Below are positions 8,680-34,723 of a stretch of DNA of 64,000 nt, piece after piece. Each line of letters starts with the position of its first letter. Positions within the stretch are counted from its first letter, which is position 1. The notes under the pieces are model-generated. The model had not been told where the DNA came from, did no database searches, and saw nothing but the letters and a program-made list of their open reading frames with translations. The stretch is from Tubiluchus corallicola (lineage: Eukaryota; Animalia; Priapulida): contig JAQGDQ010000193.1 in the NCBI GenBank assembly GCA_030141605.1, forward strand, positions 186,001 to 250,000, in the 5' to 3' direction. Both the position numbers and the translations under genes were made by a program.

Positions 8680-8883
8680 CTTTTCAGTGTGATGGGAGAT
8701 GTGGTGATCACAGACGAGCGGGGTCCTCTTTTAGCATGGCTGGAGTGTATCGTGTTACTGTGATATGCCGTCTTTGAAGCTTTCAGCGGGGATGTGACGC
8801 TACCTTGCATACCTGTGGATGATATGTGCATCGGCTGCGTCGGAGAGCGTTTGTGAGCCTTACCAGTGTCAACATCATTAATA
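8680..8883 (-). CDS. CDC14: CDC14 C-terminal Ser/Thr/basic-rich exon (INDVDTGKAHKRSPTQP...SPLKASK...AKR...ITLK)
   Basis: ctttcag acceptor, AAAG|gtacat donor, 204 nt, phase 2-2, in frame with exon 10365-10495. Confidence 0.8.
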
Positions 8884-9719
8884 CTGAAAGGAAGACAGGA
8901 TGACTTTTCATATACTACCCCTTTCAAGTCAGATAAAAACTATACATTTTAACACAATTAATACTGCAAAAGCATTTCTGATAATTAAATAATAGATCAA
9001 GATCTTAATTAATGGCAGGCGAGCCCAACTATTGACGACATCACAAACTAACATAATTTTCAACATCAAAAATAGTCCACGAGCATGTTGCATGTGTTTT
9101 GCAAAATCGAAAGCTGAAGTATAGTGCTACTGTAAGATATTCAGTGTGTTGTACTAAAACTAGACAAGTATAAGGTAAAAATTCAAATTACAAATATACT
9201 GTTGTGCTCACATGAGCAGTTGAACGTGTGTATTTCACCACAAACTAACACATCTGAACTGAGAGGTACAGCACCTGTTTTTTGTGCAGTGCATTTCCAA
9301 TAGTGCCCATCTAGCTAGCTAACAGCAAAATGCATGTAACAGAGCAAAGAACTAGTGGCGCAAACATGAAATTCGCTTGTGTGGCAATAATTTTTCACGC
9401 AAGTCATTTTCGAAAAAAATAGTAGGTTTTTCCTTTCAATATTTTAAAGAGTAGATTGTTTAGACCTACTGCTTAAGATTGGGTCCAGTTTTGCTTGAAA
9501 GAATGAAGTGGTGAATTAGCAAACTTGGCATTATATAAGCTATAAATGCTGAAAAATTAATAGGCTTGTTAATGCAGGAGACAAAAGTGTGTTTTATACT
9601 CTTGGTAACTTAAATTTAATATTTGATCAATTGGACTGTTCTTTACATGTTCAGCATAAGGCGCCCAGGAGTTAAGATACTGACAATATCTGTCGAAGAA
9701 AATCCCGTATCCCCTTTCC

Positions 9720-9849
9720 TTAGAGAATGGCGAATGTACTGGGGAGACAATGCCAAAAGCCACGCCGTTCGAGGGATGGCATCCGCTTACAACAAACTAT
9801 GTGGGATCCCAAACTTTTACAACTCTTGCGTTGTAGGTCGCGAATAGAA
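9720..9849 (-). CDS. CDC14: CDC14 candidate alternative terminal exon ((C)SIRDLQRKSCKSLGSHIVCCKRMPSLERRGFWHCLPSTFAIL*)
   Basis: tgtttaattag acceptor in phase 2 with the donor at 10365. 42 open codons run to TAA. Locally GC-enriched compared with the flanking intron. Confidence 0.35.
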
Positions 9850-10188
9850 CTAATTAAACAGCCACTAACTACCCTGTTATTTCATTTTAATCTCAAGATA
9901 ACACTCCATTGGCATACGCTGACATCTGTATAAAAAGAAACCTACTACTGCAAACTGTACATCATATCATCAAATCACAGCCTATGATTAAACTCCATTA
10001 AGCACACATACATCTTGCACTAATAACAGTTACTAAGTGCTCTGGTTATTTCATTTTATTCTCAAGACAGAAGCACCATTGGCAAGTGCTGCCACCTTTA
10101 CAAACAAAAACCAACTTCTGCAAACTCTACATTTATCAAACCACAGGTTGCAATTACACTCTATTAAGCACACATACATCTTGAACTA
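9847..10188. repeat. Diverged tandem duplication, about 169-bp unit, two copies
   Basis: gttatttcatttta at 9876 and 10045. The blocks ctcaaga, ccattggca, ctgcaaact and attaagcacacatacatcttg recur in both units. Confidence 0.85.
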
Positions 10189-10364
10189 TAAATTTTTGTT
10201 TCTGTGCCACGATTGATTTCCGCATGATTTCTTCCACATATCAGTTCTAGGATATTTGCCCTAGATTTTGATTCAGAATCGAACAGTAACGGGTCATCTA
10301 CTTTGTTACATACAACATAGGTCTGTTTATAAATTGAAACTAAATTTATTATTCCCGAACTTAC

Positions 10365-10495
10365 CATGAATGACCCCCAAGTGTGTGAGATCTCAAGTGC
10401 ATCTTGCGCTGGGCTTTGATATGATTCAGCACGTCTCCTTGGGTGATTTTATTATCAACTCCCGGACTAGTCACGGGCCGCTGTTTGCCTCGATC
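10365..10495 (-). CDS. CDC14: CDC14 exon with the conserved TQGD motif (DRGKQRPVTSPGVDNKITQGDVLNHIKAQRKMHLRSHTLGGHS)
   Basis: tttacag acceptor, gtaagt donor, 131 nt, phase 0-2. The TQGD-x-L-x2-[IL]K motif is typical of metazoan CDC14 tails. Confidence 0.9.
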
Positions 10496-10616
10496 CTGTA
10501 AACAACAACAGACTTTCACATTACAAAACAAAACGAAAAATGTTACAAATAATGTCTCAAGGCAGTTTACTACTACGAATCCAATAAGCAGTGTGAATGG
10601 AGTAAACTATGTATAC

Positions 10617-10776
10617 CGCGTAATCCTCGATGCGGTCGTCAATCGCTATGTCATCCACCCGCGATGTTAACTGCTTCATGGTGGTGTAGGCGGAGTTCGT
10701 CTCCATGTTGTTGTTGTCCCGCAACTTTTGACGTGCCCGCCAAATGTCACCCTCCCTCCACATGTCATTCTGCTTA
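10617..10776 (-). CDS. CDC14: CDC14 exon, end of catalytic domain (KQNDMWREGDIWRARQK...IEDYA)
   Basis: ttccag acceptor, GCG|gtatac donor, 160 nt, phase 2-0. Contains the KQ-x2-[ML]W-x-EGD motif. Confidence 0.9.
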
Positions 10777-12009
10777 CTGGAAACAAAAGAAATTCTTACT
10801 GAGAAAGTAAAAGCAACAGAAGATCATTAAGAGCAAGGGACAAGACATAGTTATCAAGAACAAAATCTTATCAATCAATCCATCACATAGCCTCGCTTTT
10901 CTAGCTTTTCAATTTCAGCATCACAAAGAACTGATAGCATCAATAAGATAGATTTGGAAAATTTGGATGAGACATCTTTACAAGTTTACGTAATTACAAA
11001 GCTTGTCTTTGATAGCTGCTATCACGTCCTTTCTCTTAGTAGTCAATAATGAATTCATCTTTTTATGGTCAAGAAAGAGAAAGGCAAATATACGCTTTAT
11101 CCCTAAAGTTATTAGCAGCCATCAGAGCCAAAAGAATGCCGCTATAACAGTGTCTGGTACTGACTGGCTCTGTCATGACTGTGAATGAAGAGTTGCGTGG
11201 TGTAATTTGTTCACATTCTTAAAGCAATCGGATTCAAAAAAGCAAATGTGCTCAGCTGAGCAATTTATGGTATCAGATCTCAAAAGAGATTTAAAGCCAA
11301 CGGAGAGAAATTTTCGTTAATCAAGATATTTGATCTTCAGAAAATCGCACAGAACCCAAGGACAAAACCAATTCACTGCATTGTGTATCATCAGTTAGTG
11401 GAAATTTCGGGAAGTGTGCAATTTGACATGCACACAAAATTCAATAGCAATTAAATGTGGTGGTTTAGTTTAATTTCGTGCAACTTGCTGCATTAGACTG
11501 TTATTGTTGTCCACATTTTATACCTTAGCCACATAACAACACTTGGTCAGTAAGGCAGTGATAAATCCAAAAAGAAAGGTATAATTCTAAAGATCAAAAA
11601 TAGGGCTCCATTCATACACTTATTACTATAAAGAGCCACATGACAGTTCGCACAAAACTTGCCAATATTAAAGGCTAACTGCAACTCTTGGGTGTTTTTG
11701 TTTGTAAGAATCAGCTTGCCAGCTGTGATTAAGAAACCATTATTAAGAGGTTGTGATTAAGAGGTCAGCAAGGTTGTGATAAGAGGTCAGCCTTTTGACC
11801 TTGACCTCTGAACTTAGACAGGACAGTTCTAATGTAGTCATATCAATGATGATATTTCTACCATACTAGGTAACGTTACAGTCATTTGTTTTTCAGACAT
11901 TTAAAATTTATTTCAATCATTCCAGATTCTTTGCCATCACGCAGAGAGAGAAACAGGCACAAACTAAGCAAATGTTTTTCACAACCAGATTTCACTTGTT
12001 AGTAATGGT

Positions 12010-12260
12010 TCAAGACCTTTAAAATCTATATGAAAACGAGTCTTAAAACCCATCTTTTTACTAGAATGTTTAATGAGAGTGAGTCTTAGAGCCCATTTTC
12101 ACTACCTTGTTTAATTAGTTTCCTTGTGAATTTTTATTGTATGCTTATATTTTATTGCAGCCGTTCTTATTGTTGACATGTTTTAGTGCACGTCTGATGA
12201 CAATAATTGTCGATTTATGCACTTTATAAATAAATCATCATTATCAGTATCATTATATTA
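12010..12260 (+). mobile_element. 3' tail remnant of a non-LTR retroelement (L2/CR1-like or a derived SINE)
   Basis: cttaaaacccatcttttt (LKTHLF-like ORF2 end), then a tail ending aataaa-tcatcattat. A similar tail occurs near 59600-59680. Confidence 0.45.
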
Positions 12261-12491
12261 TAAATGTACTGTGTACTAGCAGTGTAGGTTGCATTTGGTG
12301 GGCACAGGAAGTTCTGTTCATGTAAGTTTTTCTGAGTCTTAGATCAGACATCATAACAACATGTCACAAAAGACGTAGTTTAAAACTTGTGGCGGCTTCT
12401 ATATAGCACAACCGAAACATTTTTATACAGTGCTAGCATCGCCCTCCCCCCCACCACATCTGAGATGATGCGAACTTGCAATGTCACTTAC

Positions 12492-12630
12492 TCTTCCAGA
12501 TAGTATTGTTGTGGTCCTATGATAGATCCCGGACGACAGATGCGTATCCAAGCGATGCATTCTGCAGCCGTGTAGCGATAGTGCTTCATCATGTAACAAC
12601 CGATGAGCGTACCTGTGCGACCAAGGCCAG
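12492..12630 (-). CDS. CDC14: CDC14 exon, second half of the PTP loop ([46 protein letters not shown])
   Basis: ttttttgcag acceptor, gtaagt donor, 139 nt, phase 1-2. Completes HCKAGLGRTG and contains RPGS-x-IGPQQ. Confidence 0.98.
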
Positions 12631-13222
12631 CTGCAAAAAATGCAAGACAATGCGAACTTGAGTACTGATTAGGTTTGCACAATGTCAGCTGAGCTGAACC
12701 CTAACATTGTTCCACAAAAGAAAAAACACTTATATCTAATGAAGTCTAGAGCTAACAAAATCAAAGCCAGTATGCAATTTGCTACGAAAAAGAACTCAAA
12801 TAGGAAGTCCTTCAAATGCAATAGGCCTAAAAGCTCATTTTCAGTCTCACAAGTACTATTTTCAATCTTTCAATCACAGTGCAACAGACTAACCTTGAAA
12901 ATAGCAGTCTAATACAAATTTAGATTCACCGAGTCCCACAAGTTATTAATGTAACGAGAAGAATATCGCACAATAAAAGAAATGATGGCTGTTAGAGTGC
13001 AGATATAACATCGTTTGAATTAAAAAAGATTAAAATGTCTTTTATTGCAGCACATGTGTACCTAACAAGTACCCATTTGTCTTAATTTTCTCATGTTCAT
13101 TACCCATTGTCATAAGCCATTGATTAGTATGCTTTGAGAGTGACAAGTCTACATTTACAAGCCAGGAAATTTCCATACCACACTATCCTTCTCTCTACCT
13201 AACTACCACTTTCACCACCTAC

Positions 13223-13453
13223 CCTTGCAATGCACAGCAAGAGCTCCATCGGCATTTTCGGCAATCTCTAAGAATTGTTTGAGAATGTTGTCTGTCGGGA
13301 CGCTACCGTCCAGGAAGAACAGGTCCTTGTGTTGAAAACCGGCTTCCGTGAAACGACGAGAGTCGTACATTTTCTTGTTGAGTCGGATGATGTGCGTGAC
13401 GTTGTGCTTGCGGAAGTAAGGAAAGTAAGCTTCTGGGGCATGCAATGGATATC
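13223..13453 (-). CDS. CDC14: CDC14 catalytic-domain exon ([31 protein letters not shown]...[10 protein letters not shown]...LAVHCK)
   Basis: tttccag acceptor, G|gtaggt donor, 231 nt, phase 1-1. Contains the general-acid loop FFLDGS and the catalytic HCK. Confidence 0.98.
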
Positions 13454-14205
13454 CTGGAAAATTTAAGAAAACATATTCACTGCATCTGTCTTAATTTAGT
13501 GTTGAAAACCTAAGAAATTTCTGAACGATGAAACTCCCGATGCAATTTAGGAACCACAATTTTACTAAATCTTAGTTGTAAAACAAAAACATTCTTTCAT
13601 ACATACAGCATGCGCACTTCTTTTCACTTTGAAATAGACATTTGTAATAAATGGTTTTGAGGAATTAATGACTTAAAATTGTTGATTTTGATTACGATAA
13701 TTAACTATTTTGTTACGAAATTAAAAAGATGGTGATGATTAAAATACAAGTTAATTAGAGGATGCAACGTGCCAACAACTTATTAACAAACAAATAAATC
13801 AGGATTACAAGGAATGCACAATACTGCATAATTTTTTCTTACTTCATATAATATTTTTTAATAATGAAATACAGACACACTACATGTTAGTTTGCAACAT
13901 TAGACTGATTTACTAGTCAGGAAGAAGCACAAAAACAAATACAAAGACTATTCATTCTAATGTTTCAAGATATGGAGTTCTATTCTAAAAATTAGCTTTG
14001 GGGTTGGTTCTATTCTGCTCGCGGAACAGAGATTGCATAGCAACTTATAGAGGACTTTCACATCAAAACTTATTGAATCTTGAAAATGCCCAGTGTTCCG
14101 TTGTAGATGCATGCTGTTACAGCCAAATTCAACTTGAAAGTCCATCATCTTGGTTAGTCCAAATTTCAGGCATTTCTCATGCATTGCCAAAAAATGTTTC
14201 CCTAC

Positions 14206-14296
14206 CACTTTCCTCAATTTTACTGATATTAAATGGACCAGAAAATGCCAGCATTTTCCCTGGAATAATCCAGTTTATGTCACCATTTTCAATTTG
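14206..14296 (-). CDS. CDC14: CDC14 duplicated exon, variant B ([31 protein letters not shown])
   Basis: tttttttcag acceptor, G|gtaggg donor, 91 nt, phase 0-1. A weaker same-phase donor would give 88 nt. Paralogous to 14594-14681. Confidence 0.88.
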
Positions 14297-14593
14297 CTGA
14301 AAAAAAGATAGAAAAAGTATGATGAAAGAGCAAAGAAGACGAAGATAGATTGAATGACAGTGCATCTGATCTGGAGTAGTTTAAAATTTGCTGTTTTTTT
14401 TAAACTACTTTCCCGTAGTTATTACTTTGGGATGGCATAACAGAATTGCAATCAGTCATCAAGATGACAGAAGTGGAAATCTTCCACATATTCTCTCATT
14501 CAAACAAAATGTGAGAATTTGAAACGGGTGAAACAGCCAATTTTTTGAGCAGTTGCACTGTCATTAAGTTGCCAGACTCCAAAAGTTGCGTAC

Positions 14594-14681
14594 CATGCTC
14601 TATTTTGGTCTGTGAATGTGGCCCACAAAATGCCAGGAACTTTCCAGGAAGTATCCAATTCAAATCGCCATTTTCAACTCG
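14594..14681 (-). CDS. CDC14: CDC14 duplicated exon, variant A ([30 protein letters not shown])
   Basis: gttttgcag acceptor, G|gtacgc donor, 88 nt, phase 0-1. Canonical CDC14 ENGDxNWI-x-P motif. Confidence 0.96.
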
Positions 14682-14859
14682 CTGCAAAACATTATAGGTT
14701 GCATGCAAAATATTTAAATTGCTTACTATATAATTCATTTTTCAAGCAAATAAGACATTTTAATATTAAAATTTTTTTAGACTCATTGAAATATATTGTA
14801 GTGAAAGATATAAACAAAAAATTAATACAATGGTGCAAGAATGGAAAAATGTGACTTAC

Positions 14860-14922
14860 CTCGTAGTGCTCGTATTCGTCTACGTCAAAAGTTTCAAAGT
14901 TGAAAAAACCATTGATTAAGCT
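14860..14922 (-). CDS. CDC14: CDC14 exon, acidic linker (SLINGFFNFETFDVDEYEHYE)
   Basis: ttttccag acceptor, GAG|gtaagt donor, 63 nt, phase 0-0. Contains the FDVDEYEHYE motif. Confidence 0.97.
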
Positions 14923-15175
14923 CTGGAAAATGAATAAAAATAAAAATATTCTTTAATGCACAGAAAAAGAAGTGATGTTATTCAAATTTCCGTTTGACCA
15001 TAGAAGCAAGCTGCATTAGACTACAGACACAAGAGTTCAACCTCGCGTCAGTCTGGTTGTGTCATAACTTGTATCTGGAGTGAATTAAACAAAGCAAGTG
15101 AAAAAAAGAAATGAAAGGAAGGAAAACAGTAAGAAAAATTACCAATACATATATATATAAATTAGAGAAAGAAAG

Positions 15176-15321
<146 letters not shown>

Positions 15322-15879
15322 AGGGGAAGGAAACAACAATAATTTAAAACAACAACAGGTAATTGAATTAATGAATCAGTGAATGAGTGAAAGAAGGAAT
15401 AATGAATAATTAAGGAATGACTGTGAGAAGTAATGAATATATGAATCTATAGTTAACTGAATGAACGGATGAAAGAAAAAGCGAATAAGTAAATGAATTT
15501 CATAAATGGTGATCAAACAATTGGATGTACAAAAATACACAATGCGAAACTGCACAATTCAAATACACTGACTGCACCTAACGTTTCAATTCACATCATT
15601 CAAAAAATCATATCCAGGCATAAATCATAATTGTGAAAATGCAAAAACAAAACGAGAACACATGAATGGGATTTTGTTGTACCCGGATTCTGAACTACAC
15701 GCAAGTGTTTCTAATTCAACATTTTAACTTTTTGCATGTTGTGACTAATAAATCTCTTGGTTTTATTTTCCTAAAGAAGACGTGACGGCGCAGGGGGTAC
15801 AACAGCAAAAACAGGTTGGCCCGAAAGAAGGAGTGTCTTCAGCACTCAGAATCAACTGATAATTTAATAGGACTGATGT

Positions 15880-15975
15880 CGACAATTTAGACCAACAATG
15901 TCACGTTTCATTGCCAAGAAGGAATGGTTATCGACATCCAGAGGAAGACCAAGAAAAGATGGAAAAAGAGTTACT
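15880..15975 (+). mobile_element. Degraded 3' end of an RTE-clade LINE
   Basis: agaggaagaccaagaaaagatgg resembles the RGRPRKRW C-terminal motif of RTE ORFs, with one base lost. Confidence 0.35.
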
Positions 15976-18900
15976 CGAGTGCCCGACGTTGACTTTGAGC
16001 TGATAACCGTGCCATAAACCAATTTGCGTAAGTCGCGAATAAAAACTTAACGAGTTTCATGTGTTTCAGGACAGCTAGCGTGTTGTAAACGCAAGAAAAA
16101 ATGAGCTGTACATTTACAACAGTAAAAAGTGTGCAAGCAACGCCTGACAAACAACCTTAAACAACTACACGTGGCCTTTCAGACAAATTTATCGGAAAGA
16201 GCTTTTCCAACGTTTATCGTCGCTGCCCATCAGCACGGATGGACACTGACAGCTTCTCTTCTCTAGATGAAAGCATTCAAATTAATATTGGTCCCCTAAG
16301 CTTTGAGAGCTTGGGTATGTGCTTAATTTACGTAGGACAGGGCTTGCGAAACCAGAAAACTTTGCCTTTGCTAGTGACATCTAAATCCTCCATTGCCTGT
16401 TAGTAAAACTACAAAGCTTCTATTCAACAGATAAACTATAAAACCGCATGTTAACTTGGCCAGGTGAGTTTTAAATGGACACTTGCTATCACAGAAAGAC
16501 TGTGTAAGCTGGTGACATCGATGTTACAACAAGTATTGCTGGCAATACATCATGTGCTGGGCATTTTAGATGATTAGAAGTCAACCAAAGTGCAAGCAAA
16601 TGTTATGCATGTCATATACACATAAGCGCACATTTTGACGGTATTTCCTATACACAAAAGTGGCAGTCAGTTTGCAAGATTTCCTGCAATATCCATGCTT
16701 TCCTCACTAGAATTTTTATGGGGCACGTGGAAAGACGAATGTTTCTACAAATCGCGGAAGCCAAACTGGCCACATGTAACAACAACACAGACTGGAGCTT
16801 ACATGTGCAGTCCGTGCAAAAAAACTTCGAAATTAGATATTTAATTAGAGTTGTCTAATTAAAAAATAAACAGCAAAACTATCAGTGTCATGTTCTGTTC
16901 TGTCGCACATGTCTTGTTCAAGTCTTGACAACTGACGAAGATTAATAGCAACCAATCCCTTACAAATAATGCAAATAACACATTAAAATGCTTTACAAAA
17001 AAGTTATGCGTTTACCAAAATTGTGATTTAAAAATAAACAGCAAACTGCATTCAGAGACAAACGCAATTATTAGTGCTTTAGAATCTGGTATTCCTGTGT
17101 CAAACTAATTTCTTCGAAGAATAAGAAAGGAGGAACAGGGAAGGCGGTCAAGTGCCTCTTTCTGGACCGAAGGGAATTAAAACGCAACATTTCCGCTGGA
17201 CCTCCATGCTTCCGGCAATCCACAGAAATGGCTTCTTAGCTCTTATCAGTTAATTGTACAAGCTCTCGCTTACAAGAACAAGACTGCATTTCTCCAAGCC
17301 GCTGCAGCTAATCAAGTTGAGACGTCAGTTAAAAATTGAAAAGCTGTGCCACAATAATCAGCGCCACATGTAGCCGGTGTTTCTATTGGCCCATTAGACT
17401 CATCTTCATGTGGGTTTGTGATCCGAAGGTCCGGGTGTAGACAGATCCGACAACAAAAGTTCCATGAACTCCAACCAACAACGTCGTATTTTGTCGATCT
17501 AGTAGGGACGAATACCTTTAAGACAAGTTCCGCAAAGACAGAATCGACTTTCATCAAGTTTAAGATCGTAAGTTAATTTTTCTCAAGTTCAAAGTATTTT
17601 AGTCAAATAAACATTGTCACATCGAGAGGATTTCTTTTACTATAACATATTTTACACTTAAAGAGTCCGGCCAAATTAAGCAATTCGTATATCTTAGTTA
17701 TAGGATCAAATAAAGGAAACATTCTCGGTAAATGTACCGTTTTCAAATACCAAATGAACTATTTCTCCATTTCCTGGTGTTAATAGTTCCCGTCCCTCTT
17801 CTAAAACACAAGACCACCCAAGCATCCACCATACTACGGCAACTTCCCAACACAAATTCAGTGAGTGTTGACAGATCCTGTGTGGATTAAACGAGAAATG
17901 AACTGCGCTGTGTGCAATTAAATTAAGAATTAATAATTCATTAAAATTTTGCGCTCGCCATTTGAAACGCATCAAAAAGCGGAATAGCGCACGAAGGCGC
18001 GAAGAATATTTAAACTGCAAATGCCTCGTGACATTGCATGTTTTATAATCTAGCAATAGCATCACCTACTGAGCTGTGGTGTGTGACGTGAACTTTCCAC
18101 AACCTTTACTATTAATAATGTATCAAATCAGCGAATTAATACAGGTGAGATTAGCGCATGGCAGCAGGATTAGATTGGAACCACCTTACACTAACCCTTA
18201 ACTAGTCACTCCAAAGTCATTTGCTTTCAAAAACCAGAAAAAAATGTTTGCAAAAATTTTTTAACAAGTTTGCGAAAACAGAGTTTTCAACGCCTTCTTT
18301 TGAGTGTAATAGAATTCAAAGGTGCTTCCCAGCGCCCTCTATTAAACGGAAAAATTCCGGATCCGTAAATCATATGAAATCCCGATGAATATTAAATGGA
18401 AAGGTCTACGACCTAACACTTATATAAAATGACGGAATCATTAATAAAGATTTACGAAATCATTACCGGGCACACACGAAAGCAGTATTAGAGATTACTA
18501 GAATGGCAAAGTTTGATGTAGGGCTTCCAGACGGGGAGCTGAGAAAATTCTAGCGCAAAAAACACGCATACAATTAATTACATCATCCTTAAAAAATCTC
18601 TTTTCCTCCTCAGTAAAGCAAGCGAGAAGAACCAGATCCAATGTTATTTGGCTTTGGTTTTGAGAAGTGTACTGGATAGGACTATTTCGACGAATCGGCG
18701 CATTTGTACTTCTAGCAGACTAATACAAAACGGCGTTAAAGCATGAGAAAGAAGAGAAAAATAAAGAAGAGACAGTATGCGGTAATGGAACAAAAGTCGA
18801 AGCTGGTGGAGCATAAAATGGGTCGCAGTGTACTCTAGATTGATTTGCAATTCATACCTTTTTTCAAGTCATATATTTTTGCTGGAAATTATAGCATTTC

Positions 18901-20399
18901 GCAATAAGATGCACCACATTTTCGTGTGACAACTTTCATGTGCTAAGCTTTGCTATAAGACCTGCTAGCTTTTAAACAAAGAATAAACTATCAGAAAAAT
19001 CTGCAAGAATTCTACTAAGGAAGCGAAGAATATACGTTTTTCTCATGTGAAACAATATAAAAGTTTTACGACTGACATTACTCAACAAGCGACACTAGGA
19101 AGAACCGTAAACGTCTGTTGAAAGTTTTTACTGCAAAAGAAAATACGTCGTGAATGAGTTTTTATGGTCTACTTCCTAGGCTCAACAAAATCTGATACGT
19201 TTTGATTACAATCATAACTCACTAGTTTCTAACCGTCTAAAAGTTCACCTACAATAACTTACTCGCCACTAGGTAGATTAGAGAAGATGGGTCACAGGAG
19301 CAGTTTAAACTGTAGCGGGGACTATAGGGCGCCGCCTGTGCTTGTACTCAGTTTACTGAATTTGGTGTCAAATCGTGATCTACATTGCACTAGTACACAG
19401 AAAATTACTGTAAACGTGAAGTACAAATTTTGTACCTCTAATTCGATTTTCACTGGTCAGCCTTTACAGAAAGGAGCTACACAACAAAGCGACCACATCA
19501 GGCTCTGAAGCAATCACTTTCACAATGCACTGTTACGTACAAGATCCTTGGTATGACATTTTCTGAGAGGCCAGTTTGCTTGGAGACAGGCCTATTGAGT
19601 TTCAGCTATCACTAACCTAACCGTCTAGCGAGTACTAAGCCGTCCGAGGAATATCTCAAGAGCTAGTGGACAAAATAATAATCAAAGTAGCGACCAGGTT
19701 GTCATTACCATGCATTGAAGCGCTTCAGTTCTTAGGTCATAAAGTCAAGGTCAAGACTTTTCGTAATTTCACAATCACTGCAACTGTTTGGCTTCTGATG
19801 CCTGAAGAAACTTTATCCTGGGATTACCGCATTGAAGGTCGAGGAACCTCAATAGTAACAATTTCAACCTCATTGAACCGTTTGGCGTGGAAGTAATCAT
19901 CAATAAGCAACCCGGGTACCTGGTGCGAACAGTACCAGTCTGCCAGCCCAGCAATGATGAATCACGGAAGCCATAAACTTTAGCTAGTTATGGTTCGTTG
20001 ACTGAAGCCAGTTTTTGCAACAGGCAAGACTCAAACAGACTAACGTAAGCAGCGTGAAGTTGTTACAGGAAACCGCAAATAAACTGACAGACAAAAAAGA
20101 CTGACTGCAAAACTAGTTAATCTTCGATGCAAAAACGTGAAAACTTCGTTCAAGGCACATGGTTCATGCTGCTGTTCAGCGCAGGTTACTGTCGACTCTG
20201 CAATAATTTTAAAAATTCGATAGTTTCATACAAGGCGATATTACATTTCTTCTCAAAGCCCCTCCTCAATGTCAACAACATTATTAGATAAATTGTCACA
20301 CTAAGCACTAATTCAATTCGAACTTGATAGCTAATAGCTAAGTATTGAGAAACATAGCGGTGTAGGTCCTTGATGTAAGATTTGGAGTTGAGATTTTAC

Positions 20400-20930
20400 A
20401 CAGCAAATTGAACTGAATTGAATTAAAGTTTATTTTTCTCCATCAAATTACAAAATATACAATAACCGCATCCATTTTTCATCAAAATCAATGGTATATT
20501 CAGATTTGTACGGTCTAATGGCTACTAATACAAGTGAAGAGGATAGCGAACTGGCCAAGAGGTCATTTAGTCAGCAGTCAGCTGTCTTTTTATATGAAAT
20601 AGTAAGTACACAGGCAGCACCAATGATGTACAGGCAAAGTTAATTAGCTTTAACTTTAGCTAACTACTAAAATTGGGTTGATAAATGTATGTTTAATTGA
20701 ACAATATTACAATTTATTATGTTAGGTGGCAAAAAAATGCTATAAGCTTTTGACGTAGCACTGCATGAACAATGGGACAATTATCATAAGAATAAAACAA
20801 TTATGCTTTGATAACAGAATACCCATAAGGAAACTAACCTATTTTGAAAAAAAGTATAGAATATTACACGAGTGAAAGACGTAATATTGAAAATCTTCTT
20901 GTTTAAGTGAAGACAACCACCAATCAGTAT
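20400..20930 (-). mobile_element. Degraded LINE ORF2 3' remnant
   Basis: The minus strand reads FFQNRLVSLW, similar to the FFSNRVxxxWNxL motif of CR1-type elements. It ends in an aataaa plus (ttcaa)n-like tail near 20430-20405. Confidence 0.35.
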
Positions 20931-21769
20931 ACCTTTGAGGAGAAAGGATTATTGACAACACAGATTCCAGCGCACACATCACAAGTAGAGAACCCGCCGC
21001 ATGCTAACTTTATACTACAATGGACTCCATTCCCAGCATCATTATAGAAACAAACACTAGAGCCCATCAGACACATCAGCCTGGGCAGCGGCCTCAGTCT
21101 AGGAGGAACAATCCCCCGATGGGGCCTTTGACCGGTTAGACGGCGGAAATCTTCGAAACATAAACATGGCCGCGCACACCGAGTCAATTTAGTCAAACAA
21201 ACATGCGTGTTAGTGTTTGACGAAAATAGAGGGCATAGCTAAAATATGCCGCCTCTAGAAGATTCATTTCAAATCATTACGCAAAATGCACATATTGTGT
21301 ATTTGTCTACATTTGTCTAATACAAAATGTCTATCTTTGCCTATCTATGACCAATGACATCATTTCTACAAAAAAGTCTTTGTACATGAGGAGCCTGGGG
21401 AGTTTGATAGCACATGCCAGCATTCTCAGACATGTTACTAAGGTAAACAAACGGCGTTGATTGACTCATTATCGACGGATTATGTCTGGCATTGTTGCTT
21501 GTGATTAGGATTCTCACCTCATCATAACAAATAAACAAACAGGTAATGATGATGAACGCAGACAGGTGGATTGATAGGTGTGCGAACAGAGGCTGCAGTT
21601 ACGCCAGAGAAAGGTTATTGGAAGCTAAAACCTTTAACATCATGCAAGAAATAATTATTGCTTCAAGTCTGAGCCTTCCTGGTTTCCGACACGAAATGTT
21701 TTCTCTAGATGAGGACACTAAAAATATTACGCCTGTGGTCTTGATGTTGCAGTTCTTGTTTTTGCTGTC

Positions 21770-21852
21770 GTTGTCATTGTTGCTGTTGTTGTTGTTGTTG
21801 TTGTCGTCGTCGTTGTTCTTGTTGTTATTTATTGTTCCTGTGTTCTTGTTGT
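21770..21852. repeat. Imperfect (TTG/TCG)n microsatellite
   Basis: Runs of ttgttgttg. These explain the poly-L and poly-N ORFs here. Confidence 0.9.
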
Positions 21853-23825
21853 TACAGTTGTTATCTAAAAACGTAAACGACAATCTTTGGGACAAACAAG
21901 GTGGTAAAATCATAACAAAGTAACACGTTAAAGCTTTCTGTGATGTCACTGATGCCCATTTCTCTAGTTTCAGTTCAGTTTTAACTTTTAGTTTTTAATA
22001 TCCAAGACTACAAATTGTTCTGCAGCAAACGATAAAGCATCAAATATTGTGCAAAATTAAATTTGCTAGATATACACTGTTAAACACACAGACTTCTGTG
22101 CATTCCTAAAGCAAGTGTGGCAGTCTCACGAAGAAGTATAAAACGCTTGGCAAAGATTAATGCAGGCAAACAAAAAATTTATTCCGCGAAAATATAAAAC
22201 TAAATGGTAGATGTACATAGTGCATACGACAAAAGTACATCTTATCAATCTAGACGATGACGGCTAAGAACACACATGGCCTATATATATAGATTGTACA
22301 TTAAACAATACATCCGAAGCTTATCAGTTTCAGATAATGGCCAAGAATGCAAACAGTTATACACAGATTTAGGCTATAATTGCACATCAGCAAGCAATAT
22401 ATAGGGCGCAAACAGTAAACAAAATAACAGCAGCAGCAAATGTAGTGAAGAAAGAGGCAGTACGAATGCAGATAACATAAACAAATTCAACGTATCTATA
22501 AATACACGTAAATATGATATGGATTAGAGCAACCAAATATATACATCGATCTGCAAGTTAATCCAGGACACTTAAATAGCCTGCCAATAGTTTAGACTGC
22601 TAATAGTTTATACTTCTGATAGGCAATACGCCAAGGTAAACTAACCATTTAGCGCCTCGAATTATGTTTATTTTCAGGCACTTTTAACAAACTGCCTATT
22701 TGGAAAACAAAATAAACAAAATTTACAAACTAAAAGGTACAATTCAATCGCAGTTAGATCAGTGAGTTTCTGCTAATGCATGGTAGAAAAAATAACCCCA
22801 GCAAATCTAAAACTGAACATTTCCTGGTGCTACGTTTTTTTCTGAAAAGAAAGTCTCAGGTGCGTAGACATGAATGCGATTCGTGCGATTTTTTTTATTC
22901 AACTTACGTATTTCATTTTATTTGTGCGGAAAGTGCGGTTGGTCCAGTCCAATACAACATCTCCGCATTCGTAATGTTTGCGCATGCGTGTTTGTGTGTG
23001 TAACGGGGGATACACCTTTAGAAGGCAAAGAGACCTGAGGTTGTTGTCTCACCCAGCTGCACCATTAATAAACTAAATTGAATGGCTTCACTTGAAACAT
23101 CAAGAAGATACCGACGCATGTAAACAATAAACAGCCTGTTACCATAGCAGAACCGACCATCTGCAGGGCAAAAAAAGAAGCCATTTGCGTAAAAACCACA
23201 CGTGTGCGGTTTCGGGAAGGATAAATTAAACATGAGAGGTAAACAACGAGCACCCAGTGGTGGTGTCCAGAGTGACGTGATGACGTCAGCGAGAAAGAAA
23301 CTACTCTCTGAAACCACTAAGAGATCTTTGTTAATGAGAATGTAATCATTATAGGCTGATGAACGTAAGTGAAGAGCATCAACAGATAGACTGGAACCTG
23401 CGTTAAGCTATAGAATTCATCACTAATGGATTTTCACTTAGTCAGCTAATGGTGCCCTGACATGTATACGCAAATAGAACACTGAAAAAAGCAAAAATAG
23501 AAATTTTCAACGTTTCATGTCCTGAAAATCAAGGTCAAGAAATTCCAAGTTAAAGACAATGTCAGCGAAAAACAACTTTGCTGACGCTTTTTTAATTCCA
23601 ACAATTTCGAAAATCAATGAGTCTAGTGTTCGATTTATATGAACGCGACGAAGTACTGGCAAACGAAGTTGCCCGACCCATAGTCAACAATGAAATCTTG
23701 GATAACAAACACTGCATATTCGAATCTTACTTAAAAATTACTCACAGCACACTCGAAAATAAAAACAATGCTACTCACTACATAATAATACAAAACAAAC
23801 TACACTGATGATGGTCATGATGATA

Positions 23826-23826
<1 letters not shown>

Positions 23827-23875
<49 letters not shown>
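23827..23875. repeat. (GAT)n microsatellite
   Basis: Perfect tandem GAT run. Confidence 0.95.
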
Positions 23876-23877
<2 letters not shown>

Positions 23878-24256
23878 GATGGATCTTTCATTACGCCACT
23901 ATTTGCAGGCTCAATACATTAGCGATGAAAATGAAATCCACGGTAGAAATTAATGACACACACTGTACACAATTACATAAAAATAAAAGAAACTGCACAA
24001 AATTATATATAAACAAATGCGTATAAACAAATACGTTAAAACGTACAAAATATATACAAAAAATGTTTAGGAAGTAAATGTGATTATAAAACAACAATTT
24101 CTAAAGTCGTAACAAGTTGTAGTGTTGACAAATTTCAATTTATATAAAAGGAAGAATCAAAGGAACTCCACCAGAGTGTACCTTTACTTTTCACTATGTT
24201 AACTTAATTTTTATAATCTGTATGACAATAAAATGACAGAAAATCATTCTGCTTAC

Positions 24257-24323
24257 CTTTTCTATAGCTTTTAAACAATCTAGCAATGTCAGCTTGTACA
24301 GGCAGGCACCAAATGACGCATCT
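24257..24323 (-). CDS. CDC14: CDC14 exon (DASFGACLYKLTLLDCLKAIEK)
   Basis: tttttag acceptor, AAG|gtaagc donor, 67 nt, phase 2-0. Completes the conserved PFRDAS motif. Confidence 0.96.
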
Positions 24324-25544
24324 CTAAAAACAGACGAAAGAAAATACAGATTAAAACATTTAATTGAAAAAGATGATAAGTTCTGAAATGAATTCTTAAA
24401 AAAGCCACACGCGAAAAGCTGTTTAATTCGTTATAATGATCACCTTAATGACTTGTATTATAACACGTAATGACATATTTAAACAGAGATATGTTTAAGA
24501 CCGAAATTTACAAATTCAATAGGACAACCTAAAAGTGTACATGTAATATAATATACATTGTGATATATACCCTATATGTTGACCCAAAAAGTCAATGCTT
24601 TTTAATAATTAATATTTGCCTAGGCCCCTCAATAAGCCGCAAACTGGGTGCGCGCATTAATAAAGCACTAGCTGTGCTAAAAATATTCAGAGAATTAATT
24701 TTCTGTAAGTTACCATGCATAAAGGCCTAAAAGCAATTGTCTTTGATCTATAGCGAAATGCATGTGTTGGTAATAAAAACTGAAACTTTAATTAGCAAAT
24801 AACCGCGAATAATTAGAATTTTAATTAATGCAGGCAGAGCCTCTAGTTTATGCTTTATACTGTCGTTAAATTACCATAAGCGGCCATGCCAGTTTACGGA
24901 ATTCTGCCAACAGCAAGGTTACGAGAGCAAAAATAAACCAAAATAAATAAATTGCTATTGAACTAAAAGCATAAGTTTAAGTGCATTGTAAACTTGCTTA
25001 CATATTACAGTGTCTAAGTAGCTTTGTCCAAAAACCAAGATGGGGTGTTTCTAATGAGTGACGACCATGACTCAAGGCCAGAACTCATTAAGCCAAAGGG
25101 TTAATTTACACAAATATCATTGCAAAAGGCGTTACGGAGGAAAAAGTACACAAAAATTTACGAGGCGGTAATCAATCTTTGTTTTTTAAGTGCTCGAATC
25201 CTGACATTACAGCTTTGAAGCTTTCCATTTTTAGTTGAAAAAAAGTTAAAAATCAATATACTGCTATATAAAAATTACAAAACTGTAAAATATTTTGCAT
25301 GTTAGCGAATTTCATGCAGCACGGCGCACAAACTAGAATTAGTAAATAAGTGGCCAAGCTTCAGCTGCTGGCAAATTGTATCCTTACCCGATTTATATAC
25401 TCAAAAAACTCAAGACTGACAAAAAGATCTGCTTTTGAAATAAACAAGCAGGGAAATCCATCAAACGTCAAAACAACAATGTAAACAACTGAAGACCGAT
25501 CCCACATTCCGTTTCAAAACTGAGGGAAGATATAAAAGGAAAAA

Positions 25545-25741
25545 GGGGAAGATGGAAGGCAGAGGCGGCAGAGACAGAGACAGATGGGGAAGGAGGGAGA
25601 GGAAGAGAGGGAGGGAGAGAGGGAGGAGAGAGAGAGAGAGAGAGAGGGAGAGAGGGAGGGAGAGAGGGAGAGAGAGAGAGAGAGTGAGAGAGAGAGGGAG
25701 AGAGAGAGAGAGTGAGAGAGAGAGGGAGAGAGAGAGAGAGG
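25545..25741. repeat. GA-rich polypurine / compound (GA)n tract
   Basis: About 200 bp that is almost entirely purine on the + strand. Confidence 0.93.
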
Positions 25742-28700
25742 ATGACTTGTTGATTCGCAGGTCAGCAGCATCTGGAGGCTGAATCGTGTGCGCTTAACTG
25801 CTTATAATTAGCTAGCTCGCAAATGCGATTATGGTCGTAATTAAAACAGCCGCGGAATAATTAATTAATCCAAGATTAATTAACAGCGCAAGGTCCTACG
25901 ACCGTCAAGGGCTGAACGGTTAGATTAATTAGCACAGAGTAATTACTTTGAAAACGTCAAGGTGATTAAGTCAACAAAAGTCGTGAAAATTTCACCCTGA
26001 GCGTTTAATACATGGCTGTGTACGCGTCATGAAATCTTGCTACAAATCCCCAAATTTCCGCACGTGGGTATATAGTTTGTCCAGGACGATTTTAGCCACA
26101 AACATAATAGCCATCAAATGTAAGCGGCAAACATCCTGTAGCTATAGTTAGATTAGCCATTGGACAGTTTGCTATTCTAGGCTCAAGTTACCAGAAAGCC
26201 TGCTAAAAAGCACATCGTCATTGACACAGTTACTAACTCTAGGTGTATATATACCGCTGTGTATATTCACGTTTACATAATATCCAAAACCCGTAACAAG
26301 ATCATGTTGAAAACAAATTGAGCTGGTGGAAAAGAGCCTCAACTAGATAACCGCCAGCTGCTTAATATAGAAGCCATTTTGCTAAATTGAGGAGACTCGA
26401 GCCGGAAGCCAGCTGTTCCAGTTTGTATCCAGCGGATTTCCGCGTCAGAGGAGGGGTTTTCCACCGCAATGATCGAATTCGCGCACCGCTAAAAAAAGGT
26501 TTACCAAACTTTCACTTGGCTAACGGTGTCAGTGGGGCAAATGCAGTTCAGTGAAATTACATTTAAATAACCACAACTTGACAACTAAATTATTTTTGAA
26601 AATTGCTCAGAGCCAATCGCTTGGAAAAATTACGAATCATAAATTGATAGGTATTACATCTGATAATAAGTGAAAATAATTTTATCAAATTTATCTGTGA
26701 CGTAGCGGTCATTTGTCGGAAATTCTGTTTTTAAGAATGTGCTAATCTTTGGCAACGTGCTAATTTTTGGCCATATTTGGAACGAATTATACTTTCGACA
26801 GTTAAGCCATATTTAAGGCCACGGTGTGAATGTCACATAATATCTGGCAACAGTTGCTATCATTGGCTATGGCAATGCATCAAGCCGAATGTGGCGCCCT
26901 GTTAGTAAAGTGTCGGCGACGTTACTATGACTGGGCTTCGCTCGTTAAACGAATAAACTGTTAAACTTGTTTTAACAAGAAAGTAACCTTTAACAGTATG
27001 CTGTTTATAGTAACTACTGTGTGAAAACGCCCTTGTAATACTTGGAAGTCTCTTGATTCCACTTAGATATAAACAACTTTCTCCGAGTACGCTGACCCAG
27101 TGTTAATTCTATTGTTATCCATTATAATAGCTCCACCCCGATGGCAAACTGATGATTTTATGAGGGGCGTAATTGCAAAAGGGAGTCATAGCAACACAGT
27201 CAGAGATAACTTGAAAGTAATGCTTCAAAAAATCTTGCAAAACAAAGAGAAAATAAATGTTTTATAAACGAATCGTACGACAAAAACCACTAACAATACC
27301 GAAAAGAGAACCAGCAACCCAAAACTCTATTGTTGTAGGAATTCTATGAAAAGAGGAGCATTTGAAGGGCAAGGGTGGAGATGAAAAATGATGATGCTGT
27401 CAAAACTTTAGTCCATGCAGGCAAGACACAGTGATTACCGCCCATCAAAGACAACAAAACCAGAAAACGCCCGGCGTGATGTTATGCTAGCATGTCTGAT
27501 TAAAGACCGATTTTGGAGGAACGTATATGGAATATGGAATATGATCAAATGGGCCTGCAGCATTGCTGTTCGTGACGAATTTAGAAAATTGAATATAATT
27601 ACTGCACGCGGTTTAAAAATGAAGTAAAAGCAGAACGCACACTCTAAATTAGAAATTATTACACGTATTGCATATAAATGTAAACACACATTAAAAATTG
27701 ACAATCTGTGATTCTCTGCAGTGAGCAAGAATCTAAAAACAGATACGTGCGACACTTTGTGTTGCTTGTGTAAAAAATTTACGCACAGCAAATTTAGCAT
27801 TGATTACTGATGAGATAGGCCTACAAAATGCTGCGTATGCTGTTTTGATTTTTTTTACCGTCAGGAACTTTTTACACGTTTCTAATATGTTGATTAAAGC
27901 AAAACCGTACCCAATCGTAAACTGTAAGTCAAAACAATCTAGTCTTTAAAATATTGAAAGGAAACATGCTATTTTTTTCAAAAGTGACTTACGTGAAAGA
28001 ATTATTACCACACAAACACAATTTCGCGTTCGCGCCACTAGTTCTTCGCTGCTACATGCATTTCGCCAGTCGCTAGTTAGACGGGCACAAGTGCTTGCAT
28101 TTCAGAAACGCAGTCAACAAAAAAACAGGTGCTGTACCTCTCAGTTCAGATGTGTTAGTTTGTGACGAACTACAAACGTTCGACAGCTCATGCGTGAGCA
28201 CAGCGGTAAATTTGAAATTGAATTTTTATCTTAAAACTTGCTTAGTTTTAGTACAACACACTGAATATCTTACAGTAGCACTGTACTTCAATTCTCGCTT
28301 TCGCAAACACGTGCAACACGCTCATGGAATATTTTTGTTGTTAAACATCACGTTAATTTGTAATGTCGTAAATAGTTGGGCTCGCCTGCAGTTAATTAAG
28401 TTTTTAATCTATAATTTAATTATATCAGAAACCGTTTTGCAGTGTTATTTGTGTTAAAATTATGCTTTTTATCGGATTTGAAAATGAGGTAGTATATGAA
28501 AAATCATCCTTTCAAGGTTCAATCTAAATCTGACCATTTTTAGCGATCATAACAGTACTGATTGTACTCGAACGTACAACCGATGGCGATTTTACGAAGG
28601 GAGGAAATCGGATTCCTTTCCTACCAAGATTATGAAATCAAATTATGCGATATTTTCAAGGTCACTCGTAACAGCAATTATTCTTGTGGGTGAATGGGTA

Positions 28701-31700
28701 TAATAATGATAACAGACATTAAATTTCAGTTTCCGACTACAGTCACTAGCCAGTAAACCTTGCTACTTTCCAATAAGCAAATATGACTTATCATTTACTG
28801 TTGCATATTCTTCAAATGTCTTTTAGAAAAACAAGAACTTGGCAACCGTAGCTTAGGTCGAAATGGGCAGCTGAAATTATACAACAACAGAGGAAAAGAA
28901 TGAATTTATTGAGTTATGGGCCGCCAAAGCAGTTCCGCATTAAGTTCACGAAAATGACAGTTCAACGTGGGATTTAACGGAAAGAATTACGTTAAACCGC
29001 CTCTGTTTAAATTAAATATGTTAAGGCGATATTGTATTATAAGGCGGACTTTTGTATGCACATCGGATTGCTAGAGAATATATACGTTATAAAATAATAA
29101 CGCAAAAAACAACAAATTCTAAATATCAAATTATATTTATTTATGCATTTGAAAAATTCATTCAGAGCGATTAAGGTTTCTAAGAATTTTTAATCATCTA
29201 CAAACCTTCGAATAACTGCTGATTATACAACACGATACAGTAATTACATTAAATTTATTTTCTATAAAAACAAGGGAGCAGATTGGGAATTGGTAATATC
29301 GCGAATATACAATAGAAATACAATGAATTACAATAGAAATAGTCAAATATGACATTCACGTTAAACTCGCTTAAACGTGCAGCCTTGTCTGCTAGTTCTG
29401 AAAATGCACTGATTGAAAATTTACTAATTTGAAAAAAACTTGAACTGAACGGGACTTGTTCAGAGCGGCAGTTCTGCAACAAGTGTATTAAATTTAAAGT
29501 TTTAACATTAACACATGACAATTCACAAAAGCATTATGTATTTGAAGCAGCCAGGCATTGAAAGATTGATCTGGTCCAATACCTAGTGGTAGACATGGCA
29601 AAATCAGGGAGACCAGTTATAGTTTTCCAACAGAAACCAGGAGAAAACTAATCAAGCAAGTTGGATGACTAGCCTGTCGCAAATAAAAACGGAACTTTTA
29701 ACACAAAAGTTCAGCTTTTCTTGTTAAACATTTGAAAGACAAAACATAAGAGGAAACTTGTAAAAGCGAAATACATTAGCCCATGCGATAGCAGAGGGTG
29801 TACTGCTGTAGAGTCTGTGGGTGGGCACTCGAATTAATGCAAAAACCAGTTATGGAGGAAACAATTTTCTACGAACGTCATAAAATCTCTTGCCAGGGGA
29901 ATTTCGTAATTAAAAATTAATTGCTTAATCGTCGAACTGCTAACAAGTCATCTTAATCAATTTACAGTCAGCTTCTGCTTTGCGTTGCTGCTCTAGTCAA
30001 GCATTTTAAATTAGAAACGTCACGGAAAGTCTCTATACGCGTGATACAGTAAGGTTGCTATAGACACAGTGTTGGAAACGCATTGAGTGATCGTCTTGCA
30101 TGGCGAAGAAGCGCAGAAAATTATTGAAAAAAGAACCCCCGGGTATTAATCGATATAAGTTTTTGTTTGCAAAAGTTCATACGTGAAATCCTAGGAGGCG
30201 AAGCAGCCAAATGTAGATCAATGTCTATGTTTTGACGTAAGCCATAACAGATCGTAACAACAAAAGCCAAAAAGGAAAGCCAAAACGAGACGCCTGCATG
30301 TGCGTTTTTGCAAAAATAAATCATTAAAAAGGTTTAAAAAGTTATATAAAAATTTGAACGGCATCAAAATTTTCAACATTCGCTTCTAAAATGGTTAATT
30401 TTAATTTGCACACTTGGCGGGACAACAGCAAGCTTGGGTTAGAACTTGGAAAACACATTTTTCTATGCTCTTCAATGCTAAAAATTATCCCAAGCATTAG
30501 AGATGACGTGCAGCCCTTACTAAGTACATGTAATATGATCACTACAATTCATAATACATGCACAAACGGCACCTGTATGCAAGCTTCAGGGCCAAGAGCA
30601 AACAGGATCCGCGAGTTGCACAGGATAGCAGAGTACATTGTTATCCTGTGTTAAGTTGGCCCTCTCTACCTCTCTGCAAAACGTTCACTTTCCCTCAGAC
30701 ACTATGGCGTCTCTTTTCCTTGCCTTCCCACTTCCACAGGCAACCATGTTACCTGAGGAACGACTCGACCCCTCATCTTCCTAAACGCCTAACATCAAGA
30801 AAAAAAGAGCAAACTCTTTCCAGAGATCCACAGTGAGACTTGCAGAAGGGAGGGGTCAAATCCGGTTTCTTTTGACACGTAGTCACAAGATTGACAAAAT
30901 AATTACAACTCCCAGAAAAATCACACATTGCAGACAGAATGGATGAGGAATCACGCCCCCACATCCCGCCAGAGCAGACTTTCCATCACGCCCCTATAAG
31001 GCAACAACATGCATTGATTTTTTTTTGCACAGAGCGTCTCTGGTCGTTAAAAAATGGGTTTGCGCCAATTTGCTAAATAAACTAAACTTTGATTAAGTCA
31101 ACACGGAGCGGGATAGAATTCCATTTCACTTAACTCACTTTTCAAACACAAGTGAACGCTGGCGAGGAAATCTGATAAAACAAAAAGGAATTTTGTTTGC
31201 CAAAAAATTACCCTGTTATACAGTGGTTGCTCGGCGGTTTGAATTTCGCTAGACAAGAACTCGCTAAAATGCTTTTAGTTTGTGAACAAACCGACTAAAA
31301 TTAACTTCAACCCTTCTGACAGCAAGTGGTTGCTCTTTTTTACATCGCACTACTAATTCTTACATAAAAAATCAATAACTGTGTAAAAAGTAACTCTACT
31401 TATGAAAAACGTACATCACTTATAAGAATTTTGACTTGTAATAGGTTAATAAATCTTCATCATAAATACACTGCAAATATTATGATACGAACTGGTAATA
31501 AACTTCATGTTGATGATGCTAATGTTCGCTTGACTAATGATTTCAACAAGGTCATAGTGATCACGCAAGATTCAACTCGCCTCCTGCTGCTGATGGCTAT
31601 GATGATGTAGCAATCAATAAAAACAGTTTTTAAAAGAGTGCAACTTGACCGCAAGCGAGAGTGCTGCCATTTTTCTCACAGACCATAATGTGGTCACGCC

Positions 31701-31838
31701 GAAACTCTTGATCGACCACGCAGGGTGCATTTGGGAACAAAGCTTGTACCGCACACAAGTTACTGTGAGAATTTTAACATCTGCGGTGACACATTTCAGC
31801 GTATCTGTTATCCTTCACTCCAAAAGAAACAGAAAAAC

Positions 31839-31842
<4 letters not shown>

Positions 31843-31890
<48 letters not shown>

Positions 31891-31935
31891 AAGGGAGGAA
31901 GGGAGGGAGAGGTAAAGAGAGAGAAAAAGAGAAAG
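31843..31935. repeat. (GA)n microsatellite plus G/A-rich tract
   Basis: Perfect GA run followed by poly-G and GGGA units. Confidence 0.93.
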
Positions 31936-34049: not shown

Positions 34050-34428
34050 CATATGAACTCTGTAATCAAACAAGCAGTTCTACTTTGGAATTCTCTACCA
34101 TTACAGGTTAAACAAATCAAGTCCCTATCAGCATTCAAAACAAAATTAAAATCACTAATATTAACCAGATATGAAATACCATCACACCAGTACGACAACA
34201 TACACACTAATTCAGAATTCATATATCCACGTCATATTAATTAAATCATAGTTTTTCATTTTTTTTGTGCATAGTTGTAAATATGTTTGATTTTATTCGT
34301 CGTTACTTTCCATTACTGCACAGTAGTTTAGATTGCACTGACGCAAGTTTTTATTAACTAACACTGATTGATCATCTCTGTAAAGTTTTTATCAGTGATT
34401 ATCAATGTATTTTAATGGCAAATAAAGA
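34050..34428 (+). mobile_element. 5'-truncated non-LTR retrotransposon 3' end (CR1/L2-group ORF2 C-terminus plus 3' UTR)
   Basis: ORF 33999..34244 contains AVLLWNSLPLQVKQIKSLSAFKTKLKSLIL, the typical WNSLP...S...FK..LK terminus. It is followed by aataaa and a simple-repeat tail. Confidence 0.75.
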
Positions 34429-34464
34429 TTATTATATATTATATTATATATTATAATATAATAT

Positions 34465-34503
<39 letters not shown>

Positions 34504-34650: not shown

Positions 34651-34719
<69 letters not shown>

Positions 34720-34723
34720 GAGA
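34429..34723. repeat. Compound microsatellite (TA)n-(GA)n-(GGGA)n-(GACA)n
   Basis: Visible directly in the sequence. Confidence 0.95.

Follow-up and report, generated by a model that had tools for sequence, protein, structure and literature searches.

The closest described relatives of the feature reported here are the tandem duplicated exon substitution events, in which old homologous neighbouring exons are used one at a time, with the core of the encoded segment kept and only a few residues changed (PMC9741552, PMC8373072, PMC5740500); one of these, in Ca-alpha1T, is described as conserved across protostomes and lost in chordates (PMC9741552). A further relative is OGDH, in which the mutually exclusive exons 4a and 4b switch the regulatory sensitivity of a single enzyme, in that case to Ca2+ (PMC7969005). 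Among the mechanisms named for keeping such exons apart is frame-coupled decay (PMC6071210). For the phosphatase CDC14 itself, human CDC14B undergoes a reversible mobility shift with H2O2 for which only Cys228 and Cys314 of its 10 cysteines are needed, a Cys228-Cys314 disulfide being inferred there from the gel shift only (PMC4493999), and this chemistry has been placed in the control of mitotic entry (PMC7222192). The role of the substrate groove of CDC14 is confirmed as well, with a specificity for pSer-Pro-x-Lys/Arg (PMC11407943).

A tandem exon pair in CDC14

The window analysed here, a 64-kb stretch of Tubiluchus corallicola DNA, contains a whole CDC14 gene on its minus strand that is closest to that of Priapulus (Table 1). 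Among 16 named proteins compared over the constitutive exons Priapulus caudatus scores best (705 bits, with the next at 611), and the exons in the window map along the full length of P0002, the annotated P. caudatus CDC14 protein, which itself carries PF14671 and PF00782 and matches 9RIB with an E value of 6.5e-174. The gene has the tandem DSP domains of the CDC14 family, an N-terminal DSPn and a catalytic domain joined by an acidic linker, and the HCxAGxGR catalytic loop is divided between two exons, with HCK closing exon 9 and AGLGRTG opening exon 10. Elsewhere in the window, at 358-1047 on the minus strand, lie open frames that begin like a signal peptide and show a Cys/Trp pattern, which we take to recall a C-type lectin domain.

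Table 1. Positions in the window of the CDC14 exons and associated features
Feature	Position	Strand	Length	Remarks
CDC14 coding exons found	~8680..60681	-		approximate extent
Exon 7	14860..14922	-	63 nt	acidic linker between the domains; donor for either 8A or 8B
Exon 8A	14594..14681	-	88 nt	AG/GT; 5' copy, Cys type (AFCGP); matches exon of P0002
Cys codon TGT of 8A	14625..14627	-		86 residues ahead of catalytic Cys; human CDC14B Cys228 position
Stem 5' arm, 8A-8B intron	14547..14565	-		predicted long-range; begins 28 nt after 8A donor
Stem 3' arm, 8A-8B intron	14353..14371	-		ends 56 nt ahead of 8B acceptor; directly precedes long pyrimidine tract
Exon 8B	14206..14296	-	91 nt	AG/GT; 3' copy, Ser type (AFSGP), one residue longer
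Ser codon TCT of 8B	14240..14242	-		same column as 8A Cys
Exon 9	13223..13453	-	231 nt	ends in HCK of catalytic motif; donor used in spliced contig
Exon 10	12492..12630	-	139 nt	AGLGRTG, remainder of catalytic loop

Between exons 7 and 9 lie two homologous versions of exon 8. The original prediction had proposed this pair, and its measurements hold on recomputation: exons of 88 and 91 nt, 297 nt apart, identical at 18 of 29 residues, with AG/GT sites and phase 0-1; the two are also identical at 58 of 88 nucleotides and both are stop-free. Either copy alone gives an open frame through exon 9, and 8B alone is open through exon 10 as well. With 8A and 8B together a stop arises at codon 32, which is 83 nt upstream of the 8B/9 junction, and with neither copy exon 9 is frameshifted and runs into a stop, so that the predicted consequences of joint inclusion and of double skipping are both borne out by the frame check. 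The pair thus has the characters of tandem mutually exclusive exons, being adjacent and homologous, of the same phase and with intact splice sites, and keeping the frame when used singly while breaking it when both or none are used. The duplication is real, and the reading frame permits one exon at a time.

The duplication is confined to this exon. A search of the three minus-strand frames of the window with an exon-8 profile exceeds 5 bits only at 8A and 8B (63.9 and 48.0 bits), and no second copy of any other CDC14 exon is found in the window. An 88-nt version of 8B that would use the donor GTGGTA is in frame, but was rejected because the conserved Gly is lost and the donor is poorer.

The pair in molluscs and metagenome loci

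Two versions of exactly exon 8 are seen as database isoforms, among the members listed, in at least 15 of 32 mollusc species: Patella (2), Haliotis (2), Gigantopelta, Physella, Mya, Mercenaria, Ruditapes, Dreissena, Mytilus (2), Magallana, Saccostrea and Argopecten; the remaining 17 species have the Cys version only, again among the members listed. Nine mollusc isoform pairs of equal length differ solely at residues 174-202, which is exon 8. These isoforms are automated RefSeq/GenBank models, of a kind for which RNA alignments generally serve as the basis. A full-length protein of the Ser type (P0362) is encoded by a Logan contig without introns, which is most similar to mollusc proteins (65–68%).

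From 172 metagenome loci 80 were kept, 69 of them with an exon-8 match. Two 88-nt copies with AG/GT sites lie between exons 7 and 9 in five of the 80 (L001, L002, L012, L018 and L019), with L002 nearest to Mytilus and both L018 and L019 nearest to Owenia; in all five the Cys copy comes first, as in the window, and inclusion of both copies leads to a stop. At least 26 loci, many of them redundant, carry exon 8 only once, on a contig that also has exons 7 and 9. Genomic order is known for the five paired loci, the window and P0161, with the 5' and 3' labels of the other database pairs assigned by residue. P0161 is a GenBank model from Mya arenaria in which both copies stand in tandem, the Cys copy then the Ser copy, by way of a shifted junction that is probably an annotation artefact. 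Both copies are thus conserved elsewhere, with the pair at the same exon in at least 15 mollusc species and five loci. The view that this is an old and selected tandem duplication with one-of-two use, put forward originally from the window, gains from the frame logic, from the selection on 8B described below, and from the mollusc isoform pairs that differ only in exon 8.

Two other features of these genes may be mentioned. In L002 the intron directly upstream of the exon pair, following exon 7, begins with GC (960-968; GC-AG). In Branchiostoma the isoform pairs P0074/P0234, P0235/P0236 and P0231/P0232 differ only at residues 135-151, a segment that corresponds to exon 6 of the window (about 24325-24257, present there in one copy) and looks like a second, independent swappable CDC14 exon.

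A cysteine or serine at the CDC14B Cys228 position

Every pair, whether from molluscs, the five loci or the window, combines an AFCGP copy with an AFSGP copy, and in the 15 pairs compared column by column the position concerned, column 19, opposes Cys to Ser without exception. The Cys of 8A aligns without gaps to the AFCGP of human CDC14B (PDB 1OHC), where its distance from the catalytic Cys identifies it as Cys228 (314-86=228); human CDC14A (PDB 9RIB) reads AFSGP, with Ser in the Cys228 column. The second cysteine of CDC14B is thus present in 8A and absent from 8B. An AlphaFold model of P0002 (pTM 0.75) places the exon-8 Cys directly after strand 190-193 and ahead of a lower-confidence loop, and the catalytic Cys likewise directly follows a strand (275-279).

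The contrasts between isoforms that were picked out originally, AFC against AFS and GPH against GPF, have had different fates. The first recurs in every pair and coincides with the Cys228 site, and the second is peculiar to 8B of the window, with His in 30 of 30 mollusc and metagenome copies. The emphasis placed on the acidic groove and substrate choice is not sustained, as the Asp of NGD is the same in both copies and in all 30 of those copies. The groove residues of CDC14B, Glu206, Glu209 and Asp215, presumably are encoded by exon 7 or coincide with the NGD Asp, which is common to both copies, so that a groove-based difference has little to act on.

We propose that choice of 8A (Cys) or 8B (Ser) would yield two phosphatases whose selected difference is predicted to be the presence or absence of a cysteine that pairs with the oxidised catalytic cysteine. 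By analogy with PTEN-type phosphatases, the 8A enzyme would be turned off reversibly under H2O2 through a disulfide, as reported for CDC14B, and the 8B enzyme, CDC14A-like at this site and without the disulfide, would respond differently to H2O2; in that case the way CDC14 reacts to redox conditions could be chosen through splicing, according to tissue or stage. This redox reading rests on the conserved Cys/Ser difference and one human experiment. The broader interpretation, of mutually exclusive exons from an old tandem duplication that likely toggle a resolving cysteine of CDC14, has in our view an even chance of being correct, and whether the redox toggle is the main selected difference between 8A and 8B is about an equal wager.

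Lineages in which one version is seen may have Cys (Oopsacas, Varroa, Owenia, Lingula) or Ser (Exaiptasia, Acanthaster, Branchiostoma, turtles, fish CDC14B, Tubulanus, Adineta), and Ala occupies the column in 16 of 144 representatives. Arthropods are thinly covered, by Tropilaelaps, a single moth protein and Varroa, for which the 10 listed full-length isoforms are all of one version. Because one-version genes use Cys, Ser or Ala, neither Cys nor Ser is essential.

This tolerance is one of several observations that fit a different account, in which both exons are used but selection has acted on the surface loop that follows GP and on nearby residues (affecting substrate, partner or localisation), Cys/Ser being just a difference that was fixed early. 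Most of the nonsynonymous change between 8A and 8B is in codons 22–29 (pN 0.50, compared with 0.15 in codons 1–21), Ser-type copies vary most in the loop after GP, and in the spiralian pairs K or R at column 1 separates the copies almost as well as Cys or Ser does (14 of 15 against 15 of 15). However, the Ser-type loop lacks conservation across species, a pattern more in keeping with relaxed constraint than with a shared function, and the loop varies in sequence and length across CDC14-like proteins generally; the groove Asp is invariant; and in the window column 1 is R/Q, so that the K/R rule fails where the C/S rule holds. We regard selection on the loop as the main difference as rather unlikely.

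Selection on exon 8B and its probable use

Between 8A and 8B dN is 0.31 and dS 1.44, and over codons 1–21 the values are 0.17 and 1.24. When neutral drift to the observed 29 nucleotide differences is simulated, 0.6% of 20,000 simulations leave the exon free of stops and with 18 or more identities, and none of the 20,000 keeps 12 of the 13 invariant columns. Exon 8B does keep 12 of 13 family-invariant columns, only one of its nine departures from the consensus falls on an invariant column (P=0.018), and its frame, AG/GT sites and phase-1 Gly are intact. On these sequence comparisons 8B looks to be under selection.

It is also the most diverged copy seen (branch 0.61, compared with a median of 0.06), with an otherwise invariant His replaced and, relative to 8A, 10 further differences besides Cys/Ser plus the extra residue. 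Its Q1, I2, F22, I24 and E29 occur in none of 88 segments from stored proteins, and each of its first 24 residues is present at its column elsewhere among CDC14-like representatives (144 of 150), three of which have Phe after GP. A profile search with 8B recovers generic CDC14 exon-8 relatives, the best at 74% identity, with no close 8B orthologue among them, and a word-index search with 8B, a weak one, is also empty.

No RNA covering 8A, 8B or exon 7 was found, either in run X2 or among the RNA sources listed for 12490-14930. Run X2 yields one spliced contig over exons 9–11 that ends at 13429, short of the exon 8/9 junction; the gap over 8B counts neither for nor against the exon. This contig, which bears the same species label and spans 10615-13429 of the window, shows 23 differences from it over 508 exon bases, a higher number than would be expected in a single species. 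We infer that 8B is probably used in Tubiluchus corallicola.

Were 8B instead an exon once used and now decaying, with only 8A spliced in T. corallicola, its long branch, replaced His and extra residue would find an explanation, as would its profile score, the lowest of all paired copies; the annotated Priapulus protein, moreover, has the 8A type only. Such decay is difficult to square with the intact frame, splice sites, phase-1 Gly and invariant residues noted above, or with the long pyrimidine tract and non-random intron stem found at 8B, while the 3' copy of L018 scores about the same (49.1 bits) and GPF, like a loop of 15 residues, is known from CDC14-like proteins elsewhere; we consider decay improbable. 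That 8B is mainly a poison exon, lowering CDC14 output by nonsense-mediated decay on joint inclusion with 8A, agrees with the position of the stop ahead of the next junction and with the same outcome in five of five loci, but is very improbable, given that such an exon need not conserve a frame of its own, yet the invariant residues are kept in the exon 7-8B frame, and that full-length Ser-type isoforms are present in mollusc databases, with the contig of P0362 encoding one.

Proposed exclusion and the predicted intron stem

If 8A and 8B are used in this exclusive manner, exclusion would be enforced by the decay of transcripts with both or neither copy, and frame-coupled decay is sufficient for this in principle. 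Steric exclusion operates when the distance from a 5' splice site to the next branch point is below about 50–60 nt. The linear distance across the 297-nt intron is too long for this, and the predicted stem would cut it to roughly the threshold range; the AG-free zone before the 8B acceptor is 67 nt. The 8A-8B intron has a better fold than any of 200 shuffles (z -3.67), owing chiefly to an inverted pair of 19 nt (Table 1). Read depth over the stem in run X1 is at the single-copy level, so that a high-copy repeat is unlikely. The stem, which lies at the branch region of 8B and as modelled would leave most of the intron in a loop, may aid exclusion.

Strong intron stems are also predicted in L018 (z -3.47) and L019, and not in L001, L002 or L012. 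L019 has additional inverted repeats: 700-723 with 1455-1478 would loop out the first exon copy, and 1049-1062 with 1612-1625 together with 1127-1148 with 1631-1652 would loop out the second copy and cover its donor, these pairings crossing each other. The docking and selector pairings that the original prediction proposed to look for in the flanking introns were not found, the best duplexes of the three intron pairs being matched by shuffles (6, 6 and 11 of 25 as good).

Origin of the pair

A tree of 49 rows and 28 columns, from which the Cys/Ser column was removed, resolves little (1 of 40 branches is starred). The copy labels of the mollusc and locus pairs change three times on this tree, compared with 9.2 times when shuffled, and these spiralian pairs probably descend from one duplication. 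Because a single origin is likely, their agreement in Cys/Ser is best counted as inherited and not as 20 independent observations.

The relationship of the priapulid pair to these is less clear. AU tests reject neither a clade of 8A and 8B (p 0.31) nor the placement of 8B with the spiralian Ser copies (p 0.22). All five 3' copies with genomic sequence, and 12 of the 14 distinct Ser-type exons that the loci contain, use AGY for the Ser; 8B uses TCT, one step from the TGT of 8A, which hints at a separate priapulid duplication. Exon 8B also shares DINWIIP and KMLAFSGP with the Ser copy of Physella and groups, unstarred, with some Ser copies. The pS of the window pair is 0.64 and that of the five loci 0.77–0.99, and the lower value was rejected as proof of a young window pair because the identity of 8 of 17 shared codons capable of synonymous change is, on a rough estimate, close to what saturation would produce. 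A separate priapulid duplication and a common origin with the spiralian pair have about even odds.

Two loci, L063 and L072, the latter closest to Adineta, have single exon-8 copies that start with Lys like the spiralian Cys copy and yet encode Ser as TCN, possibly another Cys-to-Ser reversal.

Either the splice event is an ancient one of protostomes that many lineages have since lost, or the same residue switch was reached by convergence. In its most elaborate form the second possibility would have a switch for the resolving cysteine evolving more than once: spiralians would have duplicated exon 8 and changed one copy to Cys, with the Ser copy keeping the AGY of fish and cnidarian-like loci; in priapulids a separate duplication of an exon of the Cys type would have been followed by reversion of one copy (TGT to TCT); and in human the two states are divided between the genes for CDC14B and CDC14A. 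We think this repeated evolution rather unlikely; if it were true, the tissue would decide in invertebrates whether CDC14 is made in a peroxide-switchable or in a non-disulfide form.

Comparison with known systems

The 8A/8B feature is real and belongs to a known class, that of mutually exclusive tandem exons. CDC14 is absent from the main text of PMC9741552 and from the supplements of PMC9741552, PMC8373072 and PMC5740500, as far as the available portions of these sources extend. More generally, no description of a CDC14 exon-8 pair was found in the literature, with subscription journals and bioRxiv supplements outside the scope of the search. That the original prediction knew of no such pair agrees with this as regards papers, but the mollusc version is already present, uncommented, in RefSeq/GenBank isoform models. 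The connection of the exon pair to Cys228 appears not to have been made before.

The question that the pair addresses is why animals keep CDC14 with and without Cys228, and what oxidation does to the enzyme in mitosis and cilia. Comparison of human CDC14A with CDC14B is confounded because differences lie throughout both proteins. Molluscs, and probably priapulids, offer natural isoform pairs that are identical save for 6–11 residues in one exon, Cys/Ser included, and the redox hypothesis is directly testable in oyster, mussel or limpet, with existing RNA-seq and isoform models.

The nearest counterparts are the mollusc models XP_050402649/XP_050402650 (Patella vulgata) and XP_052775341/XP_052775342 (Mya arenaria), which have the same exon, the same phase and Cys and Ser copies, in the same order where this is known. 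The mollusc Cys copy starts with Lys, and the window pair further differs in that 8B has TCT rather than AGY for Ser, is 91 nt long and reads GPF. Relative to other tandem duplicated exon substitution events, the diagnostic change in the CDC14 pair is a redox-linked Cys/Ser. OGDH is a different enzyme responding to a different signal, and exclusion there depends on distant branch points near the 5' splice site (PMC7969005); in CDC14, unlike that arrangement, the corresponding gap is about 230–270 nt unless the stem shortens it. Finally, human CDC14B (PDB 1OHC/1OHE) and CDC14A (PDB 9RIB) have Cys and Ser in the same column, as 8A and 8B do, and the Cys of human CDC14B is probably a separate gain, because fish CDC14B has Ser; in the human case the two states reside in two paralogous genes, whereas in the window both are held by one gene.
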